Of a stretch of DNA of 64,000 bases, positions 3,001 through 56,739 are shown in pieces. This DNA comes from an uncultured Candidatus Saccharibacteria bacterium (GTDB taxonomy: Bacteria > Patescibacteriota > Minisyncoccia > Phycocordibacterales > DSPV01), in the NCBI GenBank assembly GCA_964574355.1, contig CAZNMD010000003.1:5316-69315 (forward strand), written 5' to 3'. Below the pieces are notes generated by a model. That model did no database searches. It was not told the DNA's origin and worked only from the letters and a program-made list of their open reading frames with translations. How positions within the stretch are numbered: position 1 is the stretch's first letter; every line of letters starts with the position of its first letter. Both the position numbers and the translations under genes were made by a program.

Positions 3001-5345
3001 GTGGTAGTACGATCAGTTTGAAAGGAGACGCAGCTTCTTCTGTGGTTTATGATAATCCGTCCAGTCTTGTTTTTAAGAATAATGTTGTTGCTGGTTCAAA
3101 CACCAACGTGACCTATAAAGGGGTGACGTACCCTACAGTTGAAGCGCTCGATGCGGCTGTTGGTTTTCAAAATAATTCAAGCAACCCTCCTATCTTTGTA
3201 AGTTATGAAGGTGCAGATTTCAGGCCAGCAAATAGTGATACTGTGGTAAAAAATCGTGGTGCAGATTTGTCATCTTTTTTTGCTTTTGATTATGCGAACA
3301 CTCCTCGTCCGGTTGGAACTTCTTGGGATATAGGAGCTTTTGAATCGGTAGGAGATGATGGTGCACCACCTATTCTTGCACCTGTAACTGCCGTTCTTAC
3401 TGTTCAAAAAGGGGGAACAGGAGTGGGTATTGTTACAGGGGTTGGTATTTCTTGCGGAAGTGATTGCTCGCATGTTGCTTCTGTTGGTGCATCAATAACG
3501 CTCACTGCAACACCTCAGGCGGGATCGGTTTTTTCTGGTTGGTCTGGTGGGGGTTGTTCAGGAACGGGGACGTGTAGCGTTTCACTTACAAGTGCACTTT
3601 CTGTTGTTGCTCTGTTTAGTTTACAAGGGGCGTCACCAATTTCGAGTGATTTACTCTTAAAAATTGATTTTGATACAGATACATTTGGCAATAGTTTTGC
3701 CGATCGATCTGGTCGTGGACAGATTGCAACTTGCCAACCCGCGTATTCACTTAATGGACTGATGCATAATCAGTGTCCAGCAAGCTCAATTGGGCCAGAT
3801 GGAAGTAAAGCCGCTCAATTTATAGGTAAAACATGTGTTGTCGATAGTGATTATATTGGTGTGGTGGACAATGCTTTTTTGAAAAATATGCAAAAAGGCA
3901 CAATTTCTGTTTGGGGATATTACGACCCAACCGCTTATGTTGGAGCTCAGCTTCTTGACTCGTGGTCATATGTGCCGGGAACATGGGGACTTGGACGTAA
4001 TTGGAATGCTTCAGGTGATGCCTGGATGCGAACTCGATTTGCTGTTGCCGATACATCAGTTACGACAAGTGGTTTTGGGCCGTATCTATTCTTGTTTCCT
4101 GATAAAGGCCAATCTCGTTGGAGTTTATATACAATTACCTGGGATGGTTCGCGGGTGAAGGGTTACTTTGATGGTGTCCAAATCGCTGATGTTCCCCAGA
4201 TTCTTAATGTAAGTACGAATAGTTTTTATTTGGCATTAGGGGCATTTACTCATTACGAACCAAGAAATGCTTTGGATGAAAGTTGTTCAACTTATTATGG
4301 TGTACCAAAAACTGAACAGCGTATTATGCCTAACAACGGCTTTCTTACGGGCAAGTTGGATGATGTTCGTATTTATAATCGACCACTTTCAGATGAGGAA
4401 GTTGTTCAATTGTATAAAGCGGCAGGAATGTCTCCGGTCTCTTCTAAGTTCGCACCTGGTTCACGAGTTCAAGTTTTGCAAACATTGAATACCCGAAGCG
4501 TTCCAACGACAGCTGGTTTTGCTTCAGGTACACACGGAAAAGGAGCTCTTGGAGTAATTGTTGCTGGTCCGATCGCGGCAGATGGTTATATTTGGTGGCG
4601 TGTTGATTATGATTCGGGTCAAGACGGTTGGTCTGTTGAAGATTTTCTTGGAAGTTCTAGTTCGCCGATACCTCCTAATCTTCCCTTACCTACAACACCA
4701 TCAGTTCCTGAATCACCGGTCCCACCAACACCATCAGTTCCATCGACTCCTCCTTCTGGAGGAGGGGGTGGCGGGGTTACTCCCGCTAGTCCTCAACCTG
4801 AAAAACCTCGTTTGACTACGTCAGTTAGTTCTGGAGGTGGCGGTGGGGCTTCGGTGTCTCCTTCAGGAACAGTTGTGCCGCCAAATACGATTCCTTCGGT
4901 TGCCTCAGAAGCTCGTTCCTCAGATGCTCCGGTGTTTCGCTTTACGCTGCCTCTTTATCGGGGGGCAACAGGCCCAGAGGTAGTTTCTTTGCAAAAAATT
5001 CTTATCTCTGAAAAACTTCTTTCTTCTGATGCGGCTACAGGTCTTTATGGATTACAGACGATGCGAGCGGTTGAATCTTATCAATTACGATATGGTATTG
5101 TTGCCGGCGGTGACGCTGCAACGACCGGATTTGGTTTGGTTGGTAAACAAACACGTACGCACCTTAATACTCAAATAGAGCAGAGAAAGTATGATTCAGT
5201 TTTTGGAGCAAAAACATCTTCAGCTGGTTCGTTAGGAGAGGCGGATCGTATTGCCTCTCTACAAAGACAAATTATCGAATTGCAAAAGATCGTTCAACTT
5301 CTTGTGTTGCAGTTGGCTCAAATGAAATTACCAAAGTCCCAGTAA
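1..5345 (+). CDS. Giant multidomain cell-surface protein, 5'-partial: the reading frame is open from nt 3, so the gene continues upstream of the window. Domain order read from the translation: LamG/concanavalin-like jellyroll (…FNGALDDVRIYNRVL…), FN3 repeats, InlB-type B-repeat (…TCGTDCS…GWSGACTGTGSCS…), more FN3 repeats, right-handed parallel beta-helix (NosD/pectate-lyase-like: …GNHIHDITQDGIGYQTG…INNNVISGNG…), a second InlB B-repeat, a second LamG (…GKLDDVRIYNRPL…), an SH3-like segment, a Pro/Gly-rich linker, a PG_binding_1-like peptidoglycan-binding domain (…LYRGATGPEVVSLQKIL…) and a C-terminal coiled coil.
   Basis: Six-frame ORF 90..5345 (TTG at 90), with no in-frame stop back to nt 3. 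Domain motifs were recognised directly in the translation. Confidence 0.8.
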   Translation, partial: WAKPTSLVAGAPFISKATNSGGGQGWSFGLHNGTVSSLNFTVYGFTVSDLTVTTVSGTVVVDEWAHYVVTWDGTNQSSGVKVYKNGALLSTVISQNGGSSSAQSDVSRDLKFARESGYGSNYFNGALDDVRIYNRVLAESDVQGLYGMIHTPSGPPSGDTSAPSVPFSVSALLGSPSEATIAWSASSDDVGVVGYRVYRNATLLTSVTGTTFFDTALSSNTTYTYTVSAYDAAGNVSLPSVAAVVTTPLPVTPTYSLTVSRSGTGTGSVIGSGITCGTDCSESLVGGSSVLLQANPGSGSSFGGWSGACTGTGSCSFLMNSNTTVQALFSGSVSSSLTAPVNLRAHETHQDASLYGFEFRWDDPSKGLMDGFLVEKSTDGVMYEFVATTPYNDTHYTITVPNGTTNWLRIKAFKGGVYSEPTAAMKFTTIIAPLYYKVAATESGKVLLTWRDISTDETGFMIERSTNGKDFQVIAKKPTADFLTQSYYPDKIFTDDNAGAGLLLGTTYHYRLTAYNALGVSPYPEVFAVAPGMVPAAPLATLTLTKDTTNGVTPNTVLIQVTDNSNNEQGFVAERSTDGVTWTLAGTVSAAAGEKWMYDRGITPGVTYQYRIAAYNQTGRSSYVMKTISIPAVPPVGTRLWYVSKGALGSPTGASWTNAWRSLNEINWVAIKPGDTLYLDGGTYNEVLYVYSSGTVSQPVTIRPGSASPSPSGHSSRVVVNGIQIRAKNVVVDGGLQPSFVPVRAYDIVPNINMEVTNCPNSCVFSSDAEGITVRFLNVHHPAVLGANGISLVGNNADRLTIYGNHIHDITQDGIGYQTGVGAGFDSIKVSFNLIERTNDDGIEAGGHATINNNVISGNGVAGIGHPDGMQLKGDYIKIYNNSIYNRSRSSYVISIETYGPTSGHWHIFNNQLYFSTLAGGKAATASEGIFLGARSQKGNIVSFQTEQVWDDIIIANNTFVNLQNSSVIVFGTRVEEVAKVRILQLLIANNLSYNNTGTSGSTISLKGDAASSVVYDNPSSLVFKNNVVAGSNTNVTYKGVTYPTVEALDAAVGFQNNSSNPPIFVSYEGADFRPANSDTVVKNRGADLSSFFAFDYANTPRPVGTSWDIGAFESVGDDGAPPILAPVTAVLTVQKGGTGVGIVTGVGISCGSDCSHVASVGASITLTATPQAGSVFSGWSGGGCSGTGTCSVSLTSALSVVALFSLQGASPISSDLLLKIDFDTDTFGNSFADRSGRGQIATCQPAYSLNGLMHNQCPASSIGPDGSKAAQFIGKTCVVDSDYIGVVDNAFLKNMQKGTISVWGYYDPTAYVGAQLLDSWSYVPGTWGLGRNWNASGDAWMRTRFAVADTSVTTSGFGPYLFLFPDKGQSRWSLYTITWDGSRVKGYFDGVQIADVPQILNVSTNSFYLALGAFTHYEPRNALDESCSTYYGVPKTEQRIMPNNGFLTGKLDDVRIYNRPLSDEEVVQLYKAAGMSPVSSKFAPGSRVQVLQTLNTRSVPTTAGFASGTHGKGALGVIVAGPIAADGYIWWRVDYDSGQDGWSVEDFLGSSSSPIPPNLPLPTTPSVPESPVPPTPSVPSTPPSGGGGGGVTPASPQPEKPRLTTSVSSGGGGGASVSPSGTVVPPNTIPSVASEARSSDAPVFRFTLPLYRGATGPEVVSLQKILISEKLLSSDAATGLYGLQTMRAVESYQLRYGIVAGGDAATTGFGLVGKQTRTHLNTQIEQRKYDSVFGAKTSSAGSLGEADRIASLQRQIIELQKIVQLLVLQLAQMKLPKSQ

Positions 5346-8041: not shown

Positions 8042-9409
8042 GTGCACCATTCGAAAATTAAAATTATTGTTCATGAACGTCCTCATTGGGATGAAATCGT
8101 CGGAGTTTGGTTGGCACAAACGTATGGTGGTGGGAAGTATGTCGGCCTCGACAAGGCTGCAATTCGTTTTGTCGAAGAAGATCCTCTCGGTGGGGACAAT
8201 CGGTTTGACTCCGAAGGGTTGTATCCGATCGGTACCGGCAAGGGTCGGTGCGACGATAAGGGTCCGGATGGTAAGCGCAAGGCGGGAAAGTGTTCTGCTT
8301 TGCTTGTTGCCGAAGATCTTGGTGTCGAAAAAAACCAAGAACTCATTCTCCTTCTTGAGGAAACGCTTCATTGCGATACCCAAAAGGGGGTTCGTCTCAC
8401 ACAGCTCGCCGAAGCTTTGAAGTTGATAATGCTCAAGTTCGGTACGGCTGGTCAGGAGTTTTTTTTACAGCACTCGTTGACAGTTGTTGGTGCCATTGTG
8501 GCTCAGTGCGCGAATCGCTACACCGCCGGTCGTGGCGAGAAGGGAGCCCTCGACTTCTTTGAGGGTTTCGTCCGGAACGGAAGGTTTACCGACCAACGAA
8601 TTATCGGGTTTATGCGTAAGCAGCTCCAAATCGGAGCAGCTCATACAGAGTCGGTCACGGAGATCGACTTTGTTCTTCGGGCGATGCAGCGAAATGGTAC
8701 GTCTCTCAAAGATACCACCGAGTTTGCTCGCTTCATTCTCCAACACGTCTATCAGGTGCAGGAACACATTCGTGACCTTTCTCAGGTTATCAAGCCTGAC
8801 AACAAAACTCATCGAGGTCAAAACTCGAGGGAGTTTGTCACTACCGGCTTGTTTGATGATTGTGAGAGGCCGGTTCGTTTCATCATCGTTGATAGCGACG
8901 ATCCGTTTGCTCACCGTGCAACATCGTACCTTCGGTATGATGTTCATGTCATCAGGCAGTCAACGGGCAATGTTCAGGTCTTTGCCAACACATCGAAGGG
9001 TGTCAAACTTCATGTGGTGGCGGCGATGATTCGGTGGCTCGAGCTGCCGAGTGATCAAAAGACTGGATTCCTCGATGAGCTCGAGGACGCCGGAATAATT
9101 GAAGGTGTGTCACACTGGTACTACTTCGTGGAGGCACAGATGCTGTTTAATGGTTCGCAAACTCACACAGGTGTGCGACCGACAGAACTTGCTGGTCAGG
9201 CGATCGTTGATGTTCTTCGCCACGCGTTTCACCCACGTGAAATTGGGAAGTGGAAGGCGTTGCATGGAAAGGGTCGCTTTTCGCGTCAGGTTCGGTGTCC
9301 GGAAAGGTCGGTCAAGTCCAATGTCTCGGTCCAGTCTGCCGGGAAGGATTGGCCGACGGATATCGCCGCTGATCTCGAAAGGATTTGCAGTGGTCTCAAC
9401 GGAGAGTAA
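8042..9409 (+). CDS. Hypothetical 455-aa protein with no recognisable family. It is the G+C-rich 'island A'.
   Basis: Long uninterrupted ORF with a GTG start 7 nt after a GAAAGG RBS. It is visibly richer in GC codons than its neighbours. Several long overlapping ORFs on both strands were judged to be by-products of the GC richness. Confidence 0.6.
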   Translation: MHHSKIKIIVHERPHWDEIVGVWLAQTYGGGKYVGLDKAAIRFVEEDPLGGDNRFDSEGLYPIGTGKGRCDDKGPDGKRKAGKCSALLVAEDLGVEKNQELILLLEETLHCDTQKGVRLTQLAEALKLIMLKFGTAGQEFFLQHSLTVVGAIVAQCANRYTAGRGEKGALDFFEGFVRNGRFTDQRIIGFMRKQLQIGAAHTESVTEIDFVLRAMQRNGTSLKDTTEFARFILQHVYQVQEHIRDLSQVIKPDNKTHRGQNSREFVTTGLFDDCERPVRFIIVDSDDPFAHRATSYLRYDVHVIRQSTGNVQVFANTSKGVKLHVVAAMIRWLELPSDQKTGFLDELEDAGIIEGVSHWYYFVEAQMLFNGSQTHTGVRPTELAGQAIVDVLRHAFHPREIGKWKALHGKGRFSRQVRCPERSVKSNVSVQSAGKDWPTDIAADLERICSGLNGE

Positions 9410-10942: not shown

Positions 10943-11710
10943 GTGAATACAACGCCTGCCAAGGACGTACCGGTTGAAGGTGAAGAACAGCAATTCTTGA
11001 ACTATCTACGGTTTACGGTTCAGATAGTTCAAACAATACTGAGTCGTCTACCTCCGCATGTCGAAAAAGATGATTTGCTATCAGTAGGACAGCTTGGTTT
11101 GCTGAAGGCGATTCGGACGTTTGATCCAAGCAAAGGTTCTACCTTCGGTGCGTATGCTCGTCATCGTATTCGCGGGGTAGTCCTCGATGAATTGCGAAAG
11201 ATGGATATCTTTCCTCGTTCGGTTCGCGAGAGAGCTCGAATGGTCGCCGAGGTGGAAGATTGTTTGGTGAATAGGTTGGGTCGGGAACCAACAGAGATGG
11301 AAATGGCGTCAGAGATGGGGCTCGGTCTTGCGGCCTATCGTAAACTGAGATCTGAGATCCAACCTGTAGACTTTTTGTGTCTTGACGATCTACCATCTTG
11401 GTTGAAAAACAACCACTATGATCATGGGCGTCATGATTGTTATGACGCTATTGCCGACCAAAGTCTTCCGCTCGGTGAGGAACTCGAGCGTCGGGATATG
11501 TTGGCGGTGGTTTATCACTCGATCAAGAGTCTTCCTCCAAGACAGCAACAAGTGCTCGCGCTGTATTACGTTGAAGGGTGGACTTTTCGAGAAATTGGAG
11601 AAGCTCTTGGTTTTACTGAGAGCTATGCTTGTATGGTTCACAAAGAGGCAATTGTGACGCTTCGTGAACATTTCCAAAAAGAAGATCGACGCTGTACATT
11701 GGCTGGGTAG
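10943..11710 (+). CDS. RNA polymerase sigma factor of the FliA/WhiG (sigma-28) family.
   Basis: 255 aa. GTG start 6 nt after AAAGGAG. Region 2 …FGAYARHRIRGVVLDELRKMD…. Region 4 …VLALYYVEGWTFREIGEALGFTESYACMVHKEAIVTLR. Confidence 0.8.
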   Translation: MNTTPAKDVPVEGEEQQFLNYLRFTVQIVQTILSRLPPHVEKDDLLSVGQLGLLKAIRTFDPSKGSTFGAYARHRIRGVVLDELRKMDIFPRSVRERARMVAEVEDCLVNRLGREPTEMEMASEMGLGLAAYRKLRSEIQPVDFLCLDDLPSWLKNNHYDHGRHDCYDAIADQSLPLGEELERRDMLAVVYHSIKSLPPRQQQVLALYYVEGWTFREIGEALGFTESYACMVHKEAIVTLREHFQKEDRRCTLAG

Positions 11711-11852: not shown

Positions 11853-12794
11853 CTACGAGCCGCGATTGTAAATGACGACGAGATTTCTCATGGCTTTTTC
11901 TGCGGGTGTTTTACCACGAGCACTTGAGTGCCACATAGCTTCGCCGGTATCTGCGTAGGTGTCACCAAAAGTATCGATTTCATCATTAGCAATCTGACCT
12001 TCAGGGACGCCATGGTTGGCAAATTGCGTCCGAATGATTGCCGGTAGGCAGATTCCCCCGAATGCATTTGGGGCAAGTACACAGTAGTCGCCCAGTCGCT
12101 GGAAGTGCGCAATCAATTTCCGATTGGTGACTCCGTACTTTTGGTCAGTGGGTCGGTGGAAAAAATGTTCTCCACCGATACCGCACGTGATGAACACCTC
12201 AAGGTCTTGTGCGTGTTCGTTCCACTCAAAGAATTTGCACATAATTCCGTCGACAACGCTTTCGTGTGGTCGACTTGGCGTACCTGTTTCCAGGCGTGTT
12301 CGATCAACCAAACAATCTCGTCCAGCGTGTGCGGCGATAACTTTGCCACTAACACGAGATCGAGCAATGATGGTCGGACAATCTGCCGATGCGAGCATCA
12401 TATATTTTCCTCGCGGAATTTCACAACCATCAGCGCTTACGCCGCGGTAGATTTTTACTCCTTTACGTGGAGGCAGAGTAATTTTTTCGTGTGATAGGTC
12501 AATCTGGCCTTGATACACTTCAGTCAGTTCGTTGGGTGTGCAGATACGCGCGTTGAAGTCTGAAGGGCGGGGTGCATAGATCGAAGTTCGATCGCCGCCG
12601 CCAAATAAGGCGTTGATCAAGGAGTACGCCGAGCATTTCGCAACACCCGCGTTGTTTTTGAGTTCGGCAATGCTCCAGTCAGTTTGTCCGTCATTTCGCC
12701 CGCACAAAGTGACTTCAACGGGGCTCGTTCGGGTTCCATCACCAAACAGAGTGAAAACCCGAGTCGGTCTTGCTAATTCGATGTCCGTGTTCAT
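11853..12794 (-). CDS. YfiH/PgeF-like (Cu-oxidase_4 / DUF152) purine-nucleoside-phosphorylase / peptidoglycan-editing-factor family protein. It is the G+C-rich 'island B'.
   Basis: 313 aa. …SADC-PTIIARSRVSGKVIA-AHAGRD… matches the family signature ADC-x15-AHAGWRG with identical spacing. GC-rich codons. Confidence 0.5.
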   Translation of the reverse strand: MNTDIELARPTRVFTLFGDGTRTSPVEVTLCGRNDGQTDWSIAELKNNAGVAKCSAYSLINALFGGGDRTSIYAPRPSDFNARICTPNELTEVYQGQIDLSHEKITLPPRKGVKIYRGVSADGCEIPRGKYMMLASADCPTIIARSRVSGKVIAAHAGRDCLVDRTRLETGTPSRPHESVVDGIMCKFFEWNEHAQDLEVFITCGIGGEHFFHRPTDQKYGVTNRKLIAHFQRLGDYCVLAPNAFGGICLPAIIRTQFANHGVPEGQIANDEIDTFGDTYADTGEAMWHSSARGKTPAEKAMRNLVVIYNRGS

Positions 12795-15655: not shown

Positions 15656-16855
15656 ATGCCGTTTTTGGTGATCCATTTTTTGTTTTCTGTTTTTGTTCTT
15701 GCATTTGGGGGAGCTTTTGCGTATGGTTCCTATTTTTATATTCCAGAGCATTATCCAGTGCGCGTTTCTACCCCTGTTGTTTCTGAGATCGTGAAAGAAG
15801 AAAAAGCGAGTGATCATTTGAAAACACCTGTTCCGCTTCGGGCTATTTATATGACAGCCTGTGTTGCTGCAACAAAAGATTGGCGTGCTCGGATTTTGAA
15901 ATTTATTAATGAAACAGAAATTAATGCCATTGTTATAGATGTGAAGGACTATACGGGAACTATTTCTATTCCTGGAGATGAGACAAAACTTCCAGGTATT
16001 GCCGGGAAGGGGTGCAAGGTTCCTGATATGGCGGCGTTTATTGATGAACTCCATGCTCATAATATATATACGATTGCTCGCATTGCTGTGTTTCAAGATA
16101 AATTTTATGCGACAAAGTATCCAGAATTAGCGGTAAAGAAAAAGACTGATACTGCTGTGGTATGGAAGGATAGAAAAGGTTTGCCGTTTATTGATGCTGG
16201 CGCACAACCGTATTGGGATTACATTGTTGCTATCGGAGAAGCTTCGTACGATGCTGGTTTTGATGAACTTAATTTTGATTACATACGATTCCCGACTGAT
16301 GGAAATATGAGTGATATTTATTATCCTTGGAGTAACGCGACAGTAACGGCTGACCGTGCTTTAGGTAAGGCAAAAGTGGTCACCTCCTTTTTTGAACATT
16401 TGCGTGCGTCGTTTGCAACAACAGGACCAAAACTCTCAGCTGATTTATTTGGTATGACAACCACAAATCCAGACGATTTAGGTATTGGTCAGCTGTTAGA
16501 ATCTGCTGCACCAAATTTTGATTACATTGCGCCAATGGTGTATCCATCTCATTACCCGAAAGGATTTGAAGGGTACGAAGATGTAAATAAGCATCCGTAC
16601 GAGATTGTAAAGATTTCTATGGATAAGGCTGTTTCAAGATTAATTTTAGCGTCAACTACTCCGTCAAAGCTTCGGCCATGGCTTCAGGATAATGATTATC
16701 CGGTGCCCTATAGTGCTGATATGGTTCGTGCCCAGATTCAAGCAACATATGATGCGGGGCTCGATTCATGGATGCTTTGGGATCCTTCAAATGGATATAC
16801 CCGAGAAGCTCTTTTTGGACCAGAGGCAGAATTGAGAAATAAAATAGTGGAGTAA
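15656..16855 (+). CDS. Membrane-anchored putative TIM-barrel glycoside-hydrolase-like protein (GHL / DUF4015-like).
   Basis: N-terminal TM helix. …INAIVIDVKDYTGTISIPG… and …FDELNFDYIRFPTDGN…. Family assignment is from memory. Confidence 0.45.
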   Translation: MPFLVIHFLFSVFVLAFGGAFAYGSYFYIPEHYPVRVSTPVVSEIVKEEKASDHLKTPVPLRAIYMTACVAATKDWRARILKFINETEINAIVIDVKDYTGTISIPGDETKLPGIAGKGCKVPDMAAFIDELHAHNIYTIARIAVFQDKFYATKYPELAVKKKTDTAVVWKDRKGLPFIDAGAQPYWDYIVAIGEASYDAGFDELNFDYIRFPTDGNMSDIYYPWSNATVTADRALGKAKVVTSFFEHLRASFATTGPKLSADLFGMTTTNPDDLGIGQLLESAAPNFDYIAPMVYPSHYPKGFEGYEDVNKHPYEIVKISMDKAVSRLILASTTPSKLRPWLQDNDYPVPYSADMVRAQIQATYDAGLDSWMLWDPSNGYTREALFGPEAELRNKIVE

Positions 16856-16890
16856 CTCCTTCATGAGTTTTTAATTTTCCACTTTCTCTA

Positions 16891-16919
16891 TAGACAAGTC
16901 TGTATGGTAGGTATACACT
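16891..16919 (+). promoter_or_regulatory. Promoter-like TAGACA-N17-TACACT.
   Basis: Read directly upstream of the GC-rich island at 16.9–17.3 kb. Confidence 0.35.
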
Positions 16920-16925
16920 TATCTA

Positions 16926-17233
16926 CCGGGTAACGGGCTTTATCGGACGTTAGCTTACTGGCTAGCGGAGCCTGTGTTTCAATACAATCAGTGATGGAAA
17001 GATAGTTGCTATGAGTGAATCCAAGAAGGATGGTCCTAAACAGGTCGGAAAAGCGACAGCTGCTCAAATTCTCGGTGATTACGGTAGGGCAGCGGGCCCT
17101 CCTCGCCAAATCGTTTCTGAACCGGGACAGCCGATTAGGGAAGAGAGGCGCTGTATTACACCTCTGAACGCTCATCTGTTCGGCTGTTCCAGTGTCATCC
17201 ATCGGACCTAGAGTAAGGTCTTTCGTGTCGTTT
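16926..17233 (+). other. G+C-rich, apparently structured transcribed island. It is either a structured ncRNA or the leader plus coding region of a 66-aa GC-rich small protein (ORF 17011..17211, preceded by a GGAAAG RBS).
   Basis: Its composition differs from the flanks. It lies between a promoter-like element and a strong terminator. No tmRNA, RNase P P4 or SRP domain-IV signature could be confirmed by eye. Confidence 0.3.
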
Positions 17234-17274
17234 ACCCCCGAATCCAGTAGCAGGATTCGGGGGTGAATTTTTTT
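17234..17274 (+). terminator. Rho-independent terminator.
   Basis: CCCCCGAATCC-agtagca-GGATTCGGGGG 11-bp perfect stem, then TGAA and TTTTTTTT. Confidence 0.75.
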
Positions 17275-17304
17275 TGTGCATGAATAAGGTACTTCCCTTC
17301 GGGA

Positions 17305-19287
17305 ATGTCGGCTATAATAGAGATGAATATGGATGGGAACCCTATTTGTTATTTTGCTGAAACAGATGCGCGTAATAAGCGTGTAAAGTTTGGCATAAAA
17401 GAAAGAGATCGTACACGCCATATGTACGTCATTGGAAAGACGGGTATGGGTAAATCAACCTTGCTTGAAAATATGGCAATTCAAGATATGCAGCGAGGTG
17501 ATGGTATTGCGTTTATTGATCCTCACGGAAAAACAGCAGACCTTCTTTTAGAGTATGTTCCTGAATCGCGCATTAAAGATGTTTTGTATTTTGCACCGTT
17601 TGATCTTGAGTACCCCATTTCTTTTAATGTGATGGAAGATGTCGGTATGGATAAGCGGCACTTGGTGGTTTCTGGTCTCATGAGTGCGTTTAAGAAAATT
17701 TGGCTCGATGCGTGGTCTGCCCGTATGGAGTACATATTGAGTAATATTCTTTTGGCACTTCTTGAATATCCTGGTTCAACAATTCTTGGAGTGAATCGTA
17801 TGCTTGCTGATAAGGATTATCGCAAGAAGGTTGTTGAAAACGTGAAGGATGTATCAGTTCGAGCATTTTGGCTTGATGAGTTTGCAAAGTATGGTGATCG
17901 ATATATGCAAGAGGCGGGAGCAGCAATTCAAAATAAAGTTGGTCAATTTGTAAGTAATCCGCTGATTCGTAATATTATCGGTCAGCCACAATCAACATTT
18001 GATTTACGAGCAATGATGGATCAGAGAAAGATTATCATTGTGAATCTTTCAAAAGGTCGGGTTGGTGAACAGAACGCAAATCTTTTGGGTAGTATGTTTG
18101 TGACCAAGTTGTATCTTGCGGCAATGTCTCGTGCTGATTTAAGTGATGCTGCACTTGCTCGTTCGCCAAATTTTAATTTGTATGTGGATGAGTTTCAATC
18201 GTTTGCTAATGAGTCCTTTGCAAACATTCTTTCTGAGGCTCGCAAATATCGTCTTTCTTTAACGATTGCCCATCAATACATTGAACAAATGTCGGAAGAA
18301 GTTCGAGCGGCGGTATTTGGAAACGTGGGGACGATGGTTGTGTTTCGTGTGGGTGCATATGATGCTGAAATTCTTGAGAAGGAATATGCTCCACGATTTA
18401 CTGCTGAAGATATTGTAAATCTTGGTTTCGCTCAGATTTATTTGAAACTCATGATTGATGGTGTTACTTCGCCGCCATTTTCTGCAACAACATTGCCGCC
18501 ACTTGAAAAGGCGCCGGTTTCTTTTCGCGATGATGTTATTGAATGGACAAGACGAACCTATGCAAGAAATCGTGCAGAGGTTGAAGTTGATATTCGTACC
18601 TGGAGTGAAAATGAGCGACCAGCTGAAGGATCGCATGACGCGAAGCGAAAACCTCAACCGTCCCGTGGAGTTTCTGATAGAGCGCCAGATGCCCGTGTAC
18701 GAACCGCAGAAGTTCGAAGACAGCCTATCCCTCCTCGTGAATATCGTTCGGTTCAAGTCCCTGAACTTTCTGGGAGCGCGGTTTCAAAAGCTACTCCTCC
18801 TGTTGTTGAGAGCCCGGTTGTGGCACCAAATGTGTCATTAACACCTTTACCAAAAATAGAAGGTGGGGAAGGAGGTTTTGTTTCTCTTAAAGATCTTAAG
18901 TCTGGGGCGGTAGTTTCTACATCCGTCTCTCCTCGTGCTCCTAAAATAATTTCAAGAGAAAAACCTGTTATATCTCAACAGCCCTCTGTTCGTGTTGATC
19001 AAGGTTCAAAAAAGGAAACGTTGGTTGGTGCTCAAGATCAAAAATCGGTTCTTCGAGACGCTCTTGCATCAGTATTGAAGAATAACGCTCCAATAGATCA
19101 TCAGCATCAACCATCAGGACATGTTCAAAAAAATCAATCTGTACATTCAACAACCTCGGGTCATCATCGGCCACATCCTCCCCAGGTTAGTTCTTCTGGA
19201 GAAGTGCATGAAACTAAGTCAAAGGCAGGAGAAGTTTCTGTTGATGAAGTAAGGCGTATTTTAGATATTCCTCGACCAAAAGAATGA
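17305..19287 (+). CDS. Soluble FtsK/TraD/VirD4-like (type-IV-coupling-protein-like) P-loop ATPase with a C-terminal low-complexity tail of about 250 aa.
   Basis: Walker A VIGKTGMGKST. Walker B NLYVDEFQSF. …RKYRLSLTIAHQYIEQM… resembles the TrwB_AAD_bind / TraG-D_C family. There are no N-terminal TM segments. The tail is P/S/V/K/R-rich. Confidence 0.6.
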   Translation: MSAIIEMNMDGNPICYFAETDARNKRVKFGIKERDRTRHMYVIGKTGMGKSTLLENMAIQDMQRGDGIAFIDPHGKTADLLLEYVPESRIKDVLYFAPFDLEYPISFNVMEDVGMDKRHLVVSGLMSAFKKIWLDAWSARMEYILSNILLALLEYPGSTILGVNRMLADKDYRKKVVENVKDVSVRAFWLDEFAKYGDRYMQEAGAAIQNKVGQFVSNPLIRNIIGQPQSTFDLRAMMDQRKIIIVNLSKGRVGEQNANLLGSMFVTKLYLAAMSRADLSDAALARSPNFNLYVDEFQSFANESFANILSEARKYRLSLTIAHQYIEQMSEEVRAAVFGNVGTMVVFRVGAYDAEILEKEYAPRFTAEDIVNLGFAQIYLKLMIDGVTSPPFSATTLPPLEKAPVSFRDDVIEWTRRTYARNRAEVEVDIRTWSENERPAEGSHDAKRKPQPSRGVSDRAPDARVRTAEVRRQPIPPREYRSVQVPELSGSAVSKATPPVVESPVVAPNVSLTPLPKIEGGEGGFVSLKDLKSGAVVSTSVSPRAPKIISREKPVISQQPSVRVDQGSKKETLVGAQDQKSVLRDALASVLKNNAPIDHQHQPSGHVQKNQSVHSTTSGHHRPHPPQVSSSGEVHETKSKAGEVSVDEVRRILDIPRPKE

Positions 19288-20738
19288 TAAAAATTTTGTT
19301 TATAACTACATTCGTTATATATGCGTTTACGCAAAACGCATATGCCCAGGTAGTGATAAACGAGATTATGTATGATGTTGCGGGAGGTGACGATGGCCAC
19401 GAATGGATTGAGGTAAAAAATACAGGTACTACGGCTATCGATCTTTCCTTGTATCGCTTTTTTGAGGCGGGAGTACATCATAAACTTAGTGCTGTTTTAG
19501 GTACGACTCTTTCTTCTGGCGGGTATGCAGTTATTGCTGATGATGCAGTAAAATTTCAAATTGATTTTCCTTCTTTTTCCGGAGTTCTTTATGACAGTTC
19601 ATTTTCTCTTTCAAATGTGGGGGAAACACTTTCTATAAAGCTTGACGATAGTGTTATTGATTCTGTGAGTTATGTTCCGAGTGAGTTAGCTAATGGTACT
19701 GGTGCCACACTTCAGAAGGTTGGATCGTCTTTTGTTTCGCTTGCTGCTACTCCTGGAGCTTCATCTGATGCAGGGAATCCTGTTGTGAATGAACCACCTG
19801 GGACCGAAGATCCAAATACTCCAAGTAATCAATCTTCACAAAATTCATCGAGTGGAAGTGGAGGAACAGTAGCTGATCCTGATCCGACTCGAATTGTTCC
19901 AGATGCGGGGGCGGATCAAACTGTGATTGCGGGCGCGCCTGTCCTTATGTCTGGTAAAGCCAGTATTGGAGGAAAACCAGTTTCTGATACAGCACGCTTT
20001 TTGTGGAATTTCGGAGACGGCGCCACGTTTATTGGCCGTACCACAAATCATGTGTATCGATCGCCTGGACGATATGTGGTCTCGCTTTCTGTGTCTTCTG
20101 GTGAAACGAGTGCTACCGATATGCTTACCATCACTGTTGTTGAATCGCCAATATCGATTGCGTCAACGGTTCCTGGTCCGGAGGGGTATGTCTCCTTATT
20201 CAATGCCTCGAAAGGTGTTGTTGATATTTCAACATGGTATCTTCAGGTTAAAGAACAGATATTTGTTTTTCCTCCCGGTACGTTTATTGCTGGTTCATCG
20301 GTTGTGCGTTTTGATGCGGCTATAACCAGGCTTTCTTTCGCTTCACCTCAAGAAGTGTTTTTGCGTTTTCCAAATGGAAAAGAGGCTTCTGTTGGTATAC
20401 AGGATGTTGTTACCCCAAAAGCTGCTGTTTCTGTTCAGGCGACCCCAAAACCTCACGTTGATCAATCAAAAATGACAACAGCTCCTGAAAAGGGTCTTTC
20501 AAAGAGCCTTGTTGTGGAAGCTGTTCCAGAAACACGCAAAGAAGAGGATGTTACAGATAAACTTTTACAAGGGGCATTAGTGGAAGAAACGATTGATCAG
20601 GGTCAAACACAAAAGAGTGGGATGTTTTGGTGGTATGGTGCACTTGTACTGGTTTTGGCTCTTGGCACGGTCGGAGTGATTTTGATTGAGAAAAAGAAGC
20701 CAGTGGACGAGTTTGAGATAATTGAGGCAGACGAGTAG
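19284..20738 (+). CDS. Secreted lamin-tail-domain (LTD)–PKD–LTD-like protein with a C-terminal TM anchor.
   Basis: Signal peptide MIKILFITTFVIYAFTQNAYA. LTD motif VVINEIMYDVAGGDDGHEWIEVKNTGTTAIDLS. PKD motif FLWNFGDGATF…HVYRSPGRY. C-terminal TM WWYGALVLVLALGTVGVILI. Its start overlaps the upstream stop (ATGA). Confidence 0.65.
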   Translation: MIKILFITTFVIYAFTQNAYAQVVINEIMYDVAGGDDGHEWIEVKNTGTTAIDLSLYRFFEAGVHHKLSAVLGTTLSSGGYAVIADDAVKFQIDFPSFSGVLYDSSFSLSNVGETLSIKLDDSVIDSVSYVPSELANGTGATLQKVGSSFVSLAATPGASSDAGNPVVNEPPGTEDPNTPSNQSSQNSSSGSGGTVADPDPTRIVPDAGADQTVIAGAPVLMSGKASIGGKPVSDTARFLWNFGDGATFIGRTTNHVYRSPGRYVVSLSVSSGETSATDMLTITVVESPISIASTVPGPEGYVSLFNASKGVVDISTWYLQVKEQIFVFPPGTFIAGSSVVRFDAAITRLSFASPQEVFLRFPNGKEASVGIQDVVTPKAAVSVQATPKPHVDQSKMTTAPEKGLSKSLVVEAVPETRKEEDVTDKLLQGALVEETIDQGQTQKSGMFWWYGALVLVLALGTVGVILIEKKKPVDEFEIIEADE

Positions 20739-21935: not shown

Positions 21936-22025
21936 TCAAACCAGATAGTTTTCGTTTTGCTGTTTGAAACCTCAACAAAGTCACGTCCTAAAAGGTTGTG
22001 GCGCAATGAAGAAAGGTCGGTAATC

Positions 22026-22664
22026 ATGAGTGAGACAATGACAGAGGCTGAAATTCGGGCGATGTTGCAGACCGAGTTCGATCAGGTCTTTGTAAGGCCA
22101 CCGAGTAGTTTGCCGTTTTTCCCGCATGTGGTCGTGTTTTTGTCGGCGCCTCAGGATGTTACTCGCCCTACAGAAGACGACGCTCACGAAATGAGTGCCG
22201 AGAATCTTGTCCGGGCCATGTACTCGGTGTTGCTGCTCGAATCCGAAGGTGGCAGTAACTCCACCATCCTTTTGAATGGTGAGACTGAGCAGTTGCCGGC
22301 AATGAAGCGTCTCGTTGAAGGTTTCGGTTGCAGACAGTACTTGCCTATCAATTCCGGCGATCGTGGTAAGAGCCACACGGGAACTCAGTTCGTTCAGTTG
22401 GCCAACTGGCTTCGAGAGCAACCTTTCAATTCCACGGTTGGAATTGTTTTGGTGACCAGTCAGTACCACGTGCCTCGGGTCCGCCGGTATGCTGCCAAGC
22501 ATATCTCTCGTGGGGATTACAAATGGCAGGTTGTCGGCGTGCCGAACGATGTCGGTCTCTATGATCGAGAGAAAAAGGTTGCCGGCGAAATCGACCGGAT
22601 CATCAAGTACTCGAAGGATGGAACTTTCGACCTCTTCCCGGACCTCGGTGAAGGGAATTCGTAA
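22026..22664 (+). CDS. DUF218 / YdcF-ElyC-SanA-like protein. It is the G+C-rich 'island C'.
   Basis: …LLNGETEQLPAMKRLVEGFG…INSGDRGKSHTGTQFVQLANWL…VGIVLVTSQYHVPRVRRY… matches the DUF218 pattern (E…S.nT.eNA…VTS.yHm.RA). The ORF extends to 21957, but the ATG at 22026 (MSETM…) is preferred. Confidence 0.45.
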   Translation: MSETMTEAEIRAMLQTEFDQVFVRPPSSLPFFPHVVVFLSAPQDVTRPTEDDAHEMSAENLVRAMYSVLLLESEGGSNSTILLNGETEQLPAMKRLVEGFGCRQYLPINSGDRGKSHTGTQFVQLANWLREQPFNSTVGIVLVTSQYHVPRVRRYAAKHISRGDYKWQVVGVPNDVGLYDREKKVAGEIDRIIKYSKDGTFDLFPDLGEGNS

Positions 22665-25902: not shown

Positions 25903-26619
25903 ATGAACGCGTCTGAATTCGGTTGTGGTCACGCTCATCAAGTTGCGATTACAGCAGCGAAAGCTGGCTGGGAGATCGCTGATTTCACAGCTCTTCAACA
26001 AAGTGAAGAACTTTGTCGAGTTGTCCTTGGAGTCATTCGAAACGGTGGTTTACCGACTGGACTCGGTTCTACTGAGGAGCAACTCGTTTCATGGAGAAAC
26101 TTCTACACGAAGTATTTCGGCATCGAATGTGGAGACATTAAAATCCCAACTCGCACTATCGGTTTCGACCGACTCATTGTTGTTCCGCAAGGGATCACAA
26201 TGAACCGGATCGTTGAGGTGGCGCGAAAGCAGATTGAGATTTCTCTCTATGTCGAAGATCTTGATGCAAACGTTCCGACCAACGACCGGGATCCGAAGAG
26301 TGGTGGCTATGCCATTTGGGTTCGCGAACGACAAGAAGCCGATGAGGAACTCAAAAACCTCTCAGCGATCGCACTCGCAGAGAAAAGTGTAAAAGGAATC
26401 ACACTTCTCGAACGCCTCCTTTACGGTTTCAAGTATTTTCTCGAGACCGAAAAGTGTCTCGACGAGACGAACTGGACACTGTGTTCAGGTTCCCGCGGTT
26501 TGGATGGCGATGTGCCGCGCGTGCGTTGGAATCCCGATGCTCGTTGCGTGGGGGTCTATTGGTCGTATCTGCGGGGTGCGCGTGTGTTCCTCCGTTCCCG
26601 TGCAGTTGTTACCTTGTAA
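25903..26619 (+). CDS. Hypothetical 238-aa protein with no recognisable family. It is the G+C-rich 'island D'.
   Basis: GGATAGG RBS 9 nt upstream of the ATG. GC-rich codons. Confidence 0.55.
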   Translation: MNASEFGCGHAHQVAITAAKAGWEIADFTALQQSEELCRVVLGVIRNGGLPTGLGSTEEQLVSWRNFYTKYFGIECGDIKIPTRTIGFDRLIVVPQGITMNRIVEVARKQIEISLYVEDLDANVPTNDRDPKSGGYAIWVRERQEADEELKNLSAIALAEKSVKGITLLERLLYGFKYFLETEKCLDETNWTLCSGSRGLDGDVPRVRWNPDARCVGVYWSYLRGARVFLRSRAVVTL

Positions 26620-38503: not shown

Positions 38504-39244
38504 CTATTGTGCCCACACCAGGCTCGGTTTCAGACCAGTAAAATCAGCTTCAGTTTGCATTGCGCGAATGAGATCAATACGTTGCTTGTCTCGTTTTGCC
38601 CGCATTGTCTCGTCGTCTTCAACCATTTGTTCAATCGGGTGAATGTAATCAACGGTAACAGAACCGATCGTCCAGCCCCTTTGAATCATATCGATCATCG
38701 GCACAAAAAGAATCTCCCAATTATCGCCGTGGCGACCGTTGTATCCTGCCATCAATTCCGCTGCTTTGCGGGTCATGATGCGAGGTCCCACCCACAGATC
38801 TAGGTCAGGTCGACCGGTAATGTTGGCTGCTTCCCAGTTTGCCCACACTTCACAGTAGTGCTGATATTGGGGGTAGTTCGTGAAGGTTTTTCGTCGTGGA
38901 ATAACGATCTCACACCCTTGGTTTACGAGGTGATTGATACAGGGTTGAAAGAGTGGCACCATCGGATGTTTTTCCGGTTCAAGCCAAATGATAGTGTCAG
39001 CTTCAGTTGAGAGGCCAAGATTTAGGCACTGGCGCCGCGAGTTTCCCATTCCTGGCTCTTTTTGACGATGAACAGTTGCGCCTCGAGCTGAAAGTTCATT
39101 CTCGATTTTCGGATCGGGTGATCCGTCTACCACAATGAGTGGATAGTTGGCTTTTCTCGCCTCTTCTGCGGTTTTGAGTGCCAATGTGGCACGCATGTCG
39201 TCGACGTTTGGTGAGAAAGTTGTTGTAACAAGGCAGACGCTCAC
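38504..39244 (-). CDS. GT-A-fold glycosyltransferase-like protein. It is the G+C-rich 'island E' and is the only minus-strand gene in this part of the cluster.
   Basis: …YPLIVVDGSPDP… (GT2-like DxD region). GTG start 6 nt after AAGGA. GC-rich codons. Confidence 0.4.
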   Translation of the reverse strand: MSVCLVTTTFSPNVDDMRATLALKTAEEARKANYPLIVVDGSPDPKIENELSARGATVHRQKEPGMGNSRRQCLNLGLSTEADTIIWLEPEKHPMVPLFQPCINHLVNQGCEIVIPRRKTFTNYPQYQHYCEVWANWEAANITGRPDLDLWVGPRIMTRKAAELMAGYNGRHGDNWEILFVPMIDMIQRGWTIGSVTVDYIHPIEQMVEDDETMRAKRDKQRIDLIRAMQTEADFTGLKPSLVWAQ

Positions 39245-56067: not shown

Positions 56068-56739
56068 ATGTCGCACTTAGTTCTTTCATTTGATGTTGAT
56101 GGGACACTCACAAGGCGTGGTGAGCCGCTTAAACAAGAAGCGTGGGATCTACTTCTACGTGGTCGACCAATGGATGTATGGGAAGCGCTGCTCAAGGCTC
56201 GGGATAAGTATTCTGGAGGCAAGGGTTCTCGGTACGATATTATTCGAGAAATGCTCCAAGAAATTGGTGTTACAGGCGGAGAGCTTGAGATGAAAACAGA
56301 AGAGTGGGCAGAAGCATATCAGGTGGCGGTCATGTCGCTGATCCGTGCTGATTTTCGGCCAGAAGCGAGATCGGTCTTGGAGACTCTCAAAGAGCGATAT
56401 AGGCTCTATGTGAATTCCGCGACAGAAGAGGAAGGCCTGAAGAGGTGTTTAGCGGAAGTTGATTTCTCACAATTCTTCGAAGAGATATTTGGCTACCCCA
56501 AAGATGGTAGTCGAAAGAAAACTGACAACCTCCGGTTGATTCTTCAGGTTGAAGGCGTGGACCCAGAACGTTTGATTCACGTCGGTGATTCAAAATCTGA
56601 TGTCGACGCGGCTCACGCGGTCGGGTGTATCTTTATTGGTGTTGCAAATGATGACAATAGGTGGGTTCCAGAGCGAGAACCCTTTGTCGTAGTTCATTCG
56701 CTTTCTGACCTCGAAGAGGCTATCGACACTGTTTTATAG
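56068..56739 (+). CDS. HAD-superfamily phosphatase. It is the G+C-rich 'island F'.
   Basis: Motif I FDVDGTL. Motif IV …GDSKSDVDAA…. GC-rich codons. Confidence 0.65.
   Translation: MSHLVLSFDVDGTLTRRGEPLKQEAWDLLLRGRPMDVWEALLKARDKYSGGKGSRYDIIREMLQEIGVTGGELEMKTEEWAEAYQVAVMSLIRADFRPEARSVLETLKERYRLYVNSATEEEGLKRCLAEVDFSQFFEEIFGYPKDGSRKKTDNLRLILQVEGVDPERLIHVGDSKSDVDAAHAVGCIFIGVANDDNRWVPEREPFVVVHSLSDLEEAIDTVL

Follow-up and report, generated by a model that had tools for sequence, protein, structure and literature searches.

What lies between the gene for a DUF4015 protein and the gene for a VirD4/TraD-like ATPase on a Paceibacteria chromosome? The two genes stand in a 64,000-nucleotide (nt) stretch of DNA from a Candidatus Saccharibacteria bacterium (contig CAZNMD010000003.1), which we refer to as the window. 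At 15656-16855 and 17305-19287, they frame an island of raised GC content at 16891-17274. The original prediction left this island unexplained and weighed a structured noncoding RNA (ncRNA), a seventh GC-rich cassette encoding a protein of 66 amino acids (aa), and a DNA-processing site. We conclude that the island is probably a self-contained, monocistronic gene for a 66-residue small protein, which belongs to a largely unannotated Paceibacteria family linked to the ATPase. Its open reading frame (ORF) is conserved and carries a coding signature, a terminator follows it, and its position is linked to that of the ATPase gene. It is, in other words, a conserved, terminator-bounded small ORF that is under purifying selection and positionally locked to the ATPase gene.

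The small ORF and its relatives ahead of the ATPase gene

The body of the gene consists of the following elements.

17011-17211, + strand: 66-codon ORF with the product MSESKKDGPKQVGKATAAQILGDYGRAAGPPRQIVSEPGQPIREERRCITPLNAHLFGCSSVIHRT, a homologue in the related locus L001 and a profile-linked family
17047-17076, + strand: family-defining motif G-K-A-T-A-A-Q-I-L-G (residues 13-22)
17167-17184, + strand: C-proximal motif N-A-H-L-F-G (residues 53-58; N-S-H-L-F-G in L001)
17230-17275, + strand: Rho-independent terminator of the small gene, with a 16-pair stem (17230-17268), a 7-nt loop and T8 (17268-17275)

The ATPase has hundreds of relatives in metagenome bins of Paceibacteria/Parcubacteria, and 160 of their loci were analysed. 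The closest is L001 (L081 is identical to it, and the two were counted once), whose ATPase and DUF4015 proteins are 64% and 71% identical to those of the window. L001 has a 370-nt gap in the same place, between DUF4015 and ATPase. This gap holds a 61-aa ORF, which starts from an ATG at 3733 and is followed by a strong terminator, and it has TATAAT immediately before the ATPase start codon. At the DNA level, nhmmer and sensitive blastn searches with the island against 80 related loci found no homology, the L001 gap included. The 66-aa and 61-aa proteins are 40% identical over 60 residues (BLASTP, pairwise E = 1e-7), with the motifs G-x-A-T-x-A-Q-I-L-G and N-x-H-L-F-G in common.

Different codons are used at 20 of the 24 identical residues, for example CAA ATT CTC GGT in the window and CAG ATT CTG GGC in L001, and the codons for H-L-F likewise differ (CAT/CAC, CTG/TTA, and TTC/TTT). 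Differences at codon positions 1, 2, and 3 number 31, 25, and 48, and the proportion of synonymous differences (pS) is 0.96, which is saturated, with a nonsynonymous proportion (pN) of 0.47. When the two intergenic regions were compared by tblastx, the top segments lay in both ORF frames, and in a blastx search of all small ORFs near the ATPase, the island had a non-self match in the ORF frame only. The original prediction had pointed to the 66-aa ORF with GGAAAG 9 nt before its ATG; both are present, and the frame-specific conservation of the protein, accompanied by turnover of synonymous codons, supports the reading of this ORF as a small protein gene.

A profile of the window and L001 proteins was then searched against plus-strand stop-to-stop ORFs located up to 700 nt upstream of the ATPase (901 ORFs, 160 loci). 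The first round recovered L111, L098, L013, L105, and L030 at E = 0.003-0.055, iteration added L094, L090, L115, and L116, and the search converged at eleven member loci besides the window (ten beyond L001), with L001 and L081 taken as one. A minus-strand control of 1165 ORFs returned no members (best E = 0.93), and a six-frame search of all loci found no members elsewhere. In hhalign comparisons, the window/L001 pair matched two other subgroups with probabilities of 80% and 95%. The window ORF has profile E-values of 1e-19 to 1e-23, but the window sequence is itself in the profile; its independent link to the family is the L001 match.

The member proteins are 53-98 aa long, all hydrophilic, and mostly basic, with isoelectric points (pI) mostly of 9.3-11.6. 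They have an N-proximal motif in common, G-x-(A/P)-T-x-x-x-I-L-G; residues L21 and G22 do not vary across 11 members, and I20 and P31 hardly do. The third positions of the I-L-G codons are free to vary among members (CTC/CTG/TTG/CTT and GGT/GGC/GGG/GGA). DNA alignments made blind to the protein show an excess of third-position differences, with 18/22/30 at the three codon positions for L030/L094 and 19/20/29 for L105/L090, and the leaders of these two pairs have no such periodicity. The ratio of nonsynonymous to synonymous rates (dN/dS) is ~0.25 for both pairs, and pN/pS is ~0.25-0.5 overall.

The ATPase is the constant neighbour of the members. Every member ORF runs in the same direction as the ATPase, ends 46-232 nt upstream of it (93 nt in the window), and has a GC content above that of its locus. 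DUF4015, which precedes the ATPase in 95 of the 160 loci, is not immediately upstream in the member loci L030, L094, L090, and L116. The GC-rich stem with T8 that the original prediction had taken for a terminator is real and strong: it has a perfect 12-bp core (ACCCCCGAATCC/GGATTCGGGGGT) and 8 G-C pairs among its 16, and it folds at -28.1 kcal/mol (z = -6.0). The stem starts 18 nt past the stop codon of the window ORF, and a comparable terminator lies 7-18 nt past the stop codon in every member.

The 66-aa product has a pI of 9.6 and a grand average of hydropathy (GRAVY) of -0.61. AlphaFold2, supplied with the family alignment, predicted a lone 5-residue helix (A-A-Q-I-L, residues 17-21) with the rest as coil, and the product is thus best described, on this model, as a short, basic, and apparently intrinsically disordered peptide with one short helical motif. 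Its tryptic peptides would include ATAAQILGDYGR, QIVSEPGQPIR, and CITPLNAHLFGCSSVIHR.

Searches of the family against Pfam, NCBIfam, PHROGs, PADLOC, and PDB sequences found no match. A single-sequence search with the 66-aa protein in a database of 5.8 billion clusters gave no candidates, and both the window ORF and the L001 ORF are absent from the protein collection. Profile searches of 5.8 billion clusters and 1.84 billion representatives returned ~7 hypothetical proteins (P0001-P0006 and P0008) from Paceibacteria metagenome bins, which are 53-98 aa long, unnamed or hypothetical, and mostly from loci already analysed. They resemble the window protein in the I-L-G motif, in size, and in being basic and hydrophilic. 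In L030, L090, L013, L111, L098, and L116, they are encoded directly before the VirD4-like ATPase and followed by an intrinsic terminator. They differ from the window protein in sequence (only 20-40% identity) and in their C-terminal halves, which vary by subfamily, with P-x-C-R-V in the L030 group and N-x-H-L-F-G in the window and L001; they have no family name and no Pfam assignment. A TPR-repeat protein (P0007) was set aside, as its "...RVLGTDHP..." repeats resemble the motif by chance. The family is a new and unnamed one, although the general type of object is familiar.

Two known identities were tried for the window protein and rejected. The A-A-Q-I-L-G stretch could be taken for part of a helix-turn-helix of the excisionase/MerR type, but no member has a Pfam or NCBIfam match to one even at E <= 10, and the model has one 5-residue helix followed by Pro/Gly-rich coil, with no second recognition helix. 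A degenerate type IV pilin N-terminus was considered because in other loci the slot of the small gene holds real pilin genes; on inspection, the window protein lacks the hydrophobic helix, and its motif is offset from the pilin signal.

The slot itself is variable. Type IV pilin-like genes (KGFTLIELLVVIAIIGILSS...) lie directly before the ATPase in L061, L063, L064, and L077, and other ORFs found there take the forms P-D/E-W-M...Y-E-G-x-x-G-A-V-G or L-T-P-x-Q-L...P-N-x-W-E (L033/L059/L042 and L132/L058/L113). Small genes appear to have a hotspot here, ahead of the ATPase.

Several points weigh against the small-protein interpretation. The family is tiny, with its ~7 matching proteins drawn from billions of sequences, and its subfamilies are linked mainly by a 10-residue motif and by position. 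When pairwise similarity is summed over all members, frame 0 scores about twice as high as the other frames, but this test is partly circular, as the members were partly chosen by a frame-specific profile. The structure prediction is of low confidence, with a predicted local distance difference test (pLDDT) score of 60. The GC content at third codon positions (GC3), which is well above that of the flanking genes, could also reflect constraints on the RNA. The transcription and translation of the ORF are presumed, and its functional tie to the ATPase is proposed from its position. Lastly, the family was recognised at only ~7% of the ATPase loci sampled, so that as a partner of the ATPase it would have to be dispensable or replaced elsewhere.

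Promoter candidates, leader, and expression

Upstream of the ORF, four elements may be involved in its expression.

16891-16919, + strand: promoter-like site P1, with -35 TAGACA (16891-16896), a 17-nt spacer and -10 TACACT (16914-16919)
16933-16975, + strand: two-tier stem-loop, with an 8-bp outer stem, an asymmetric internal loop and an 8-bp inner stem that includes GCTAGC
16983-16988, + strand: TACAAT, an alternative -10-like element (P2) 22 nt before the ATG, read from the sequence
16996-17001, + strand: GGAAAG, a weak Shine-Dalgarno-like sequence 9 nt before the ATG, with a duplex energy of -3.3 kcal/mol against the anti-Shine-Dalgarno sequence

The promoter-like TAGACA-N17-TACACT that opened the island in the original prediction does exist, as P1, but its significance does not hold up in isolation. 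P1 agrees with the consensus at 9 of 12 positions, a match for which the background in related DNA is ~0.27 per 220 nt; a promoter scan found fewer sites in the island than in shuffled sequences, and P1 alone is not significant. The equivalent position of L001 has a site that also matches at 9 of 12 positions (TTGACG-N17-TAACAT), and a promoter-like site lies 88-146 nt before the ATG in 9 of the 11 family members. In five of the 11, a promoter matching at 11 of 12 positions lies 95-146 nt before the ATG, where 0.011 would be expected per 220 nt. The -10 hexamer of P1 forms the loop of an 8-bp hairpin (16906-16927).

Shine-Dalgarno sequences are almost unused across this genome: the median duplex energy of 37 long window ORFs with the anti-Shine-Dalgarno sequence is +0.3 kcal/mol, compared with -3.3 kcal/mol for GGAAAG. 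A weak site such as this one is normal here. Many genes have a -10-like gTATAcT or TATAAT (TAnnnT) 7-13 nt before the start codon, which suggests that leaderless mRNAs, or mRNAs with very short leaders, may be widespread in the genome. Because Shine-Dalgarno use is rare and -10-like elements near start codons are frequent, P2 is an equally plausible promoter for the small gene. Its counterpart in L001 is GATAAT, which stands at the same relative position, directly after a hairpin and a U-run.

That hairpin of L001 (3667-3704) has the same architecture as the two-tier stem-loop of the window and is followed by U6. The stem-loop belongs either to the small gene, as a hairpin of its 5' leader, or to DUF4015, as its terminator. 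The second assignment would apply if P2 is the promoter, in keeping with the U6 of the L001 counterpart. Covariation in the hairpin could not be counted rigorously from two sequences whose MAFFT alignment is one position out of register in the 3' strand. A GC-rich stem-loop ~20-35 nt before the ATG is found among the members.

One subfamily has a leader with features of its own. In L030 (3505-3608), L094 (2095-2250), L105 (555-694), and L090 (1945-2082), there is a near-consensus promoter, TTGACA-N16-TATnAT, and the promoter and the first ~75 nt of the leader (ATTATTnnAGAtGACTGAACnGnGAAnnGTTCtTTTTCTgTGGTTTaGTTG) show stronger conservation than the ORF. Ahead of the ATG lie a GC-rich hairpin and a tract rich in C and A, and the region has no Rfam match. 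This may be an undescribed regulatory leader.

We infer that the small gene is transcribed on its own and translated, and that its product acts on or with the ATPase. Transcription would start either at the weak sigma-70-like site at 16891-16919, which would give a leader of ~85 nt containing the two-tier stem-loop, or at the -10-only element at 16983-16988, with a leader of ~17 nt. The 66-codon ORF at 17011-17211 would then be translated, the transcript would end at the strong intrinsic terminator at 17230-17275, and the ATPase would be transcribed separately from its own TATAAT at 17313-17318. Our best guess for the product is a role beside the adjacent ATPase as its binding partner, adaptor, or regulator, or possibly as its substrate.

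Composition, folding, and the alternative readings

The description of the island as GC-rich is accurate in direction, its GC content being 0.492 against a window mean of 0.417 (sd 0.039), but this is only the 94th percentile, and the elevation is modest and not exceptional. The GC3 of the ORF is 0.48, compared with 0.28-0.30 in the flanking genes, and it fits a high-GC3 class of genes in the window that includes the sigma factor. These are the GC-rich cassettes of the original prediction, and its label of a seventh cassette is apt.

The high-GC3 genes (0.42-0.59, other genes 0.26-0.36) lie at 8042-9409, 10943-11710, 11853-12794 (- strand), 21957-22664, 25903-26619, 38504-39244 (- strand), and 56068-56739. 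The gene at 10943-11710 encodes the sigma-70 factor, those at 8042-9409, 25903-26619, and 38504-39244 have no Pfam match, and the remaining ones have a weak YfiH/Cu-oxidase_4-like match, a weak DUF218 match, and a HAD hydrolase assignment. The elevated GC3 of this class could come from high expression, recent acquisition, or another cause.

On the minus strand, a 177-aa ORF (16888-17421) covers all of the island and extends across the ATPase start, with the terminator read in antisense. This ORF was rejected as a gene for its overlaps and because it has no Pfam match and no similarity across loci, and its L001 counterpart has only 60 aa. The raised GC content most likely accounts for its existence.

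The strongest of the alternatives, though an improbable one, is that the island is a structured ncRNA, either small or of the housekeeping type, which extends from the promoter-like site to the terminator and contains the ORF only incidentally. The island has the outline of such a gene, being a discrete promoter-to-terminator unit of ~350 nt; its GC content is raised above that of an AT-rich genome even at third codon positions; the ORF escaped gene callers both in the window and in L001; and the 5' leader of the L030 subfamily is better conserved than its ORF. In size, raised GC content, and an end at an intrinsic terminator, it resembles transfer-messenger RNA (tmRNA), RNase P RNA, and the large signal recognition particle (SRP) RNA.

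The folding signal does not carry this further. The 361-nt region that includes the terminator has z = -3.4, but its opposite strand scores as high (z = -3.6), and leader and ORF without the terminator reach only z = -1.44, with 8 of 100 shuffles folding equally well or better. The folding signal of the 361-nt unit therefore comes from the terminator alone. The local hairpins of which the original prediction found the island full do exist, but they are of 4-5 bp each and add no excess folding beyond the terminator; one of them, GAACG...GTTC (17166-17181), consists of the codons for the conserved N-A-H-L-F. The consensus structure of the island and L001 is weak, at -14 kcal/mol over 236 columns, and conservation is found at the protein level, frame-specific and with synonymous turnover, and not at the nucleotide level.

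Database searches agree. Rfam 15 at gathering thresholds gave no match in the whole window, a permissive scan of 16700-17450 reached best E-values of 4.7 and 5.2 for unrelated families, scans of the equivalent gaps in 24 related loci gave nothing relevant, and ARAGORN found 0 tRNA or tmRNA genes in the window. The inability of the original prediction to confirm tmRNA, RNase P, or SRP RNA by eye is thereby matched, and the SRP-like AGGUC-GGAA-AAGC resemblance that it mentioned was rejected, as the SRP covariance models do not match even at E <= 10. Unlike the three known RNAs, the island has no covariance-model match at E <= 10, no ARAGORN match, and neither excess folding energy nor conserved structure. 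One transcript might serve as both a regulatory RNA and an mRNA.

Even less probable, in our estimate, is that the island controls the ATPase in cis as a leader or attenuator, in which the ORF encodes a regulatory or arrest peptide and the ATPase is reached by read-through when the terminator is bypassed. The unit always lies directly before the ATPase in the same direction, its terminator follows closely on the stop codon, and there are conserved hairpins in the leaders. A short and poorly conserved ORF directly before a gene of the same direction is also what is seen in SecM-secA, MifM-yidC2, and TnaC. Unlike in these systems, the ORF of the window is divided from the ATPase gene by a strong terminator and a separate -10 element, and its conserved motif is N-proximal, whereas the stalling position is C-terminal. 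With 16 pairs and U8, the terminator is very strong, and no antiterminator pairing is evident; judging by the size of its footprint, a ribosome at the stop codon would fall short of the stem 18 nt downstream; and 53-98 aa is long for a leader peptide. Past the terminator of the small gene, most members whose sequence is visible there have TATAAT (TTAAAAT in L111), which suggests an independent promoter for the ATPase.

The reading with the least in its favour, and one that we consider very unlikely, is that the island is functionless intergenic DNA, where the neighbouring genes terminate and an ORF occurs by chance, or that it serves in DNA processing, for example as an origin of transfer (oriT) for the ATPase: the gap between DUF4015 and ATPase does vary from 0 to ~1000 nt with differing content across the 160 loci, and the L001 leader hairpin with its U6 does resemble a DUF4015 terminator, but the ORF and its motifs are kept across loci whose DNA is otherwise unalignable, the sole long inverted repeat has the form of a canonical terminator, its U-tract confined to the plus strand, the scanned ORFs showed no relaxase or other gene for conjugation, and most Patescibacteria homologues of type IV coupling proteins (T4CPs) lie away from virB4 or relaxase genes (PMC12102498). 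The setting is also that of an ordinary chromosomal region, with genes for Mur ligases, a sigma factor, a PEP synthase-type protein, and glycosyltransferases, and the flanking genes assign the window to a Paceibacteria chromosome of the candidate phyla radiation (CPR).

The adjacent ATPase and a possible partnership

Three features describe the surroundings of the small gene.

15656-16855, + strand: upstream gene for DUF4015, a putative glycosyl hydrolase (Pfam PF13200, E = 2e-88), outside the small-gene unit
17305-19287, + strand: VirD4/TraD-like (T4CP-like) P-loop ATPase, with Pfam matches above cut-offs
17313-17318, + strand: TATAAT, the likely -10 element of the ATPase promoter, downstream of the terminator and, like P2, identified by reading the sequence

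The ATPase exceeds the Pfam cut-offs for T4SS-DNA_transf (28.7, cut-off 20.1), TrwB_AAD_bind (23.3, cut-off 20.5), and TraG-D_C (22.6, cut-off 22), and all of its scores against the NCBIfam T4CP models are far below their cut-offs. By inspection, its Walker A motif is near residue 44, and it has no hydrophobic N-terminus; its C-terminus is a long disordered tail. Its listed start is the ATG at 17305, which would place TATAAT within the first codons, and homologues align from residues 4-14. The true start is probably the ATG at 17323 or 17329 (M-N-M-D-G-N), which would make the mRNA nearly leaderless. L001 has the same arrangement, with TATAAT followed by ATGATGTCAACAATGG.

The ATPase stop codon overlaps (ATGA) the start of the next gene at 19284. 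The product of that gene (19284-20738) starts with a signal peptide, contains lamin-tail (LTD) and PKD domains, and has a transmembrane anchor at its C-terminus, and an LTD/PKD homologue follows the ATPase in at least 49 of the 160 loci. This suggests that the ATPase may form an operon with an LTD/PKD surface protein. Neither VirB4 nor a relaxase was seen among the neighbouring ORFs scanned.

The F-plasmid protein TraM is a small accessory protein that binds the C-terminal tail of TraD. More generally, known type IV coupling proteins have small accessory proteins as binding partners, and the substrate signals that they recognise are basic and disordered. The window resembles the TraM/TraD pair in that a small protein is encoded beside a VirD4/TraD-family ATPase and in that this ATPase matches TraG-D_C, the "TraM recognition site of TraD and TraG," just above the cut-off. 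It differs in that the small protein has no sequence or fold similarity to TraM or any Pfam family, in that there is no relaxase, oriT, or mating-pore gene nearby, and in that the ATPase has no obvious N-terminal membrane anchor. By analogy with coupling-protein systems, an accessory or substrate-like role is plausible, and the small protein could be an adaptor, a regulator, or a recognised substrate of the ATPase. The constant position beside the ATPase is the reason for proposing a partner or regulator. A more specific version, that the small protein and the unrelated small ORFs found in the same slot in relatives are dedicated partners of an orphan VirD4-like ATPase, is tentative and, in our view, rather doubtful.

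The ATPase fits a class of orphan and possibly exapted T4CP homologues. In a survey of Patescibacteria, 148 of 5,713 T4CP homologues were near virB4, and its authors raise the exaptation of these homologues for other functions (PMC12102498).

An unexplained structured island thus becomes an ordinary small protein-coding gene with its own terminator. Its family is nearly invisible to annotation: the window ORF and its closest homologue went uncalled, and only ~7 relatives stand among billions of sequences. It is a reminder that small CPR genes, which here lack Shine-Dalgarno signals, are systematically under-called. The strict position beside an orphan T4CP-like ATPase is the sole functional clue, and a candidate partner is a modest but concrete lead. 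If the partnership is true, the small protein would offer a first experimental handle on an exapted coupling protein that is conserved in thousands of Patescibacteria genomes and that may serve, for example, in the trafficking of DNA or protein together with the co-operonic LTD/PKD surface protein.

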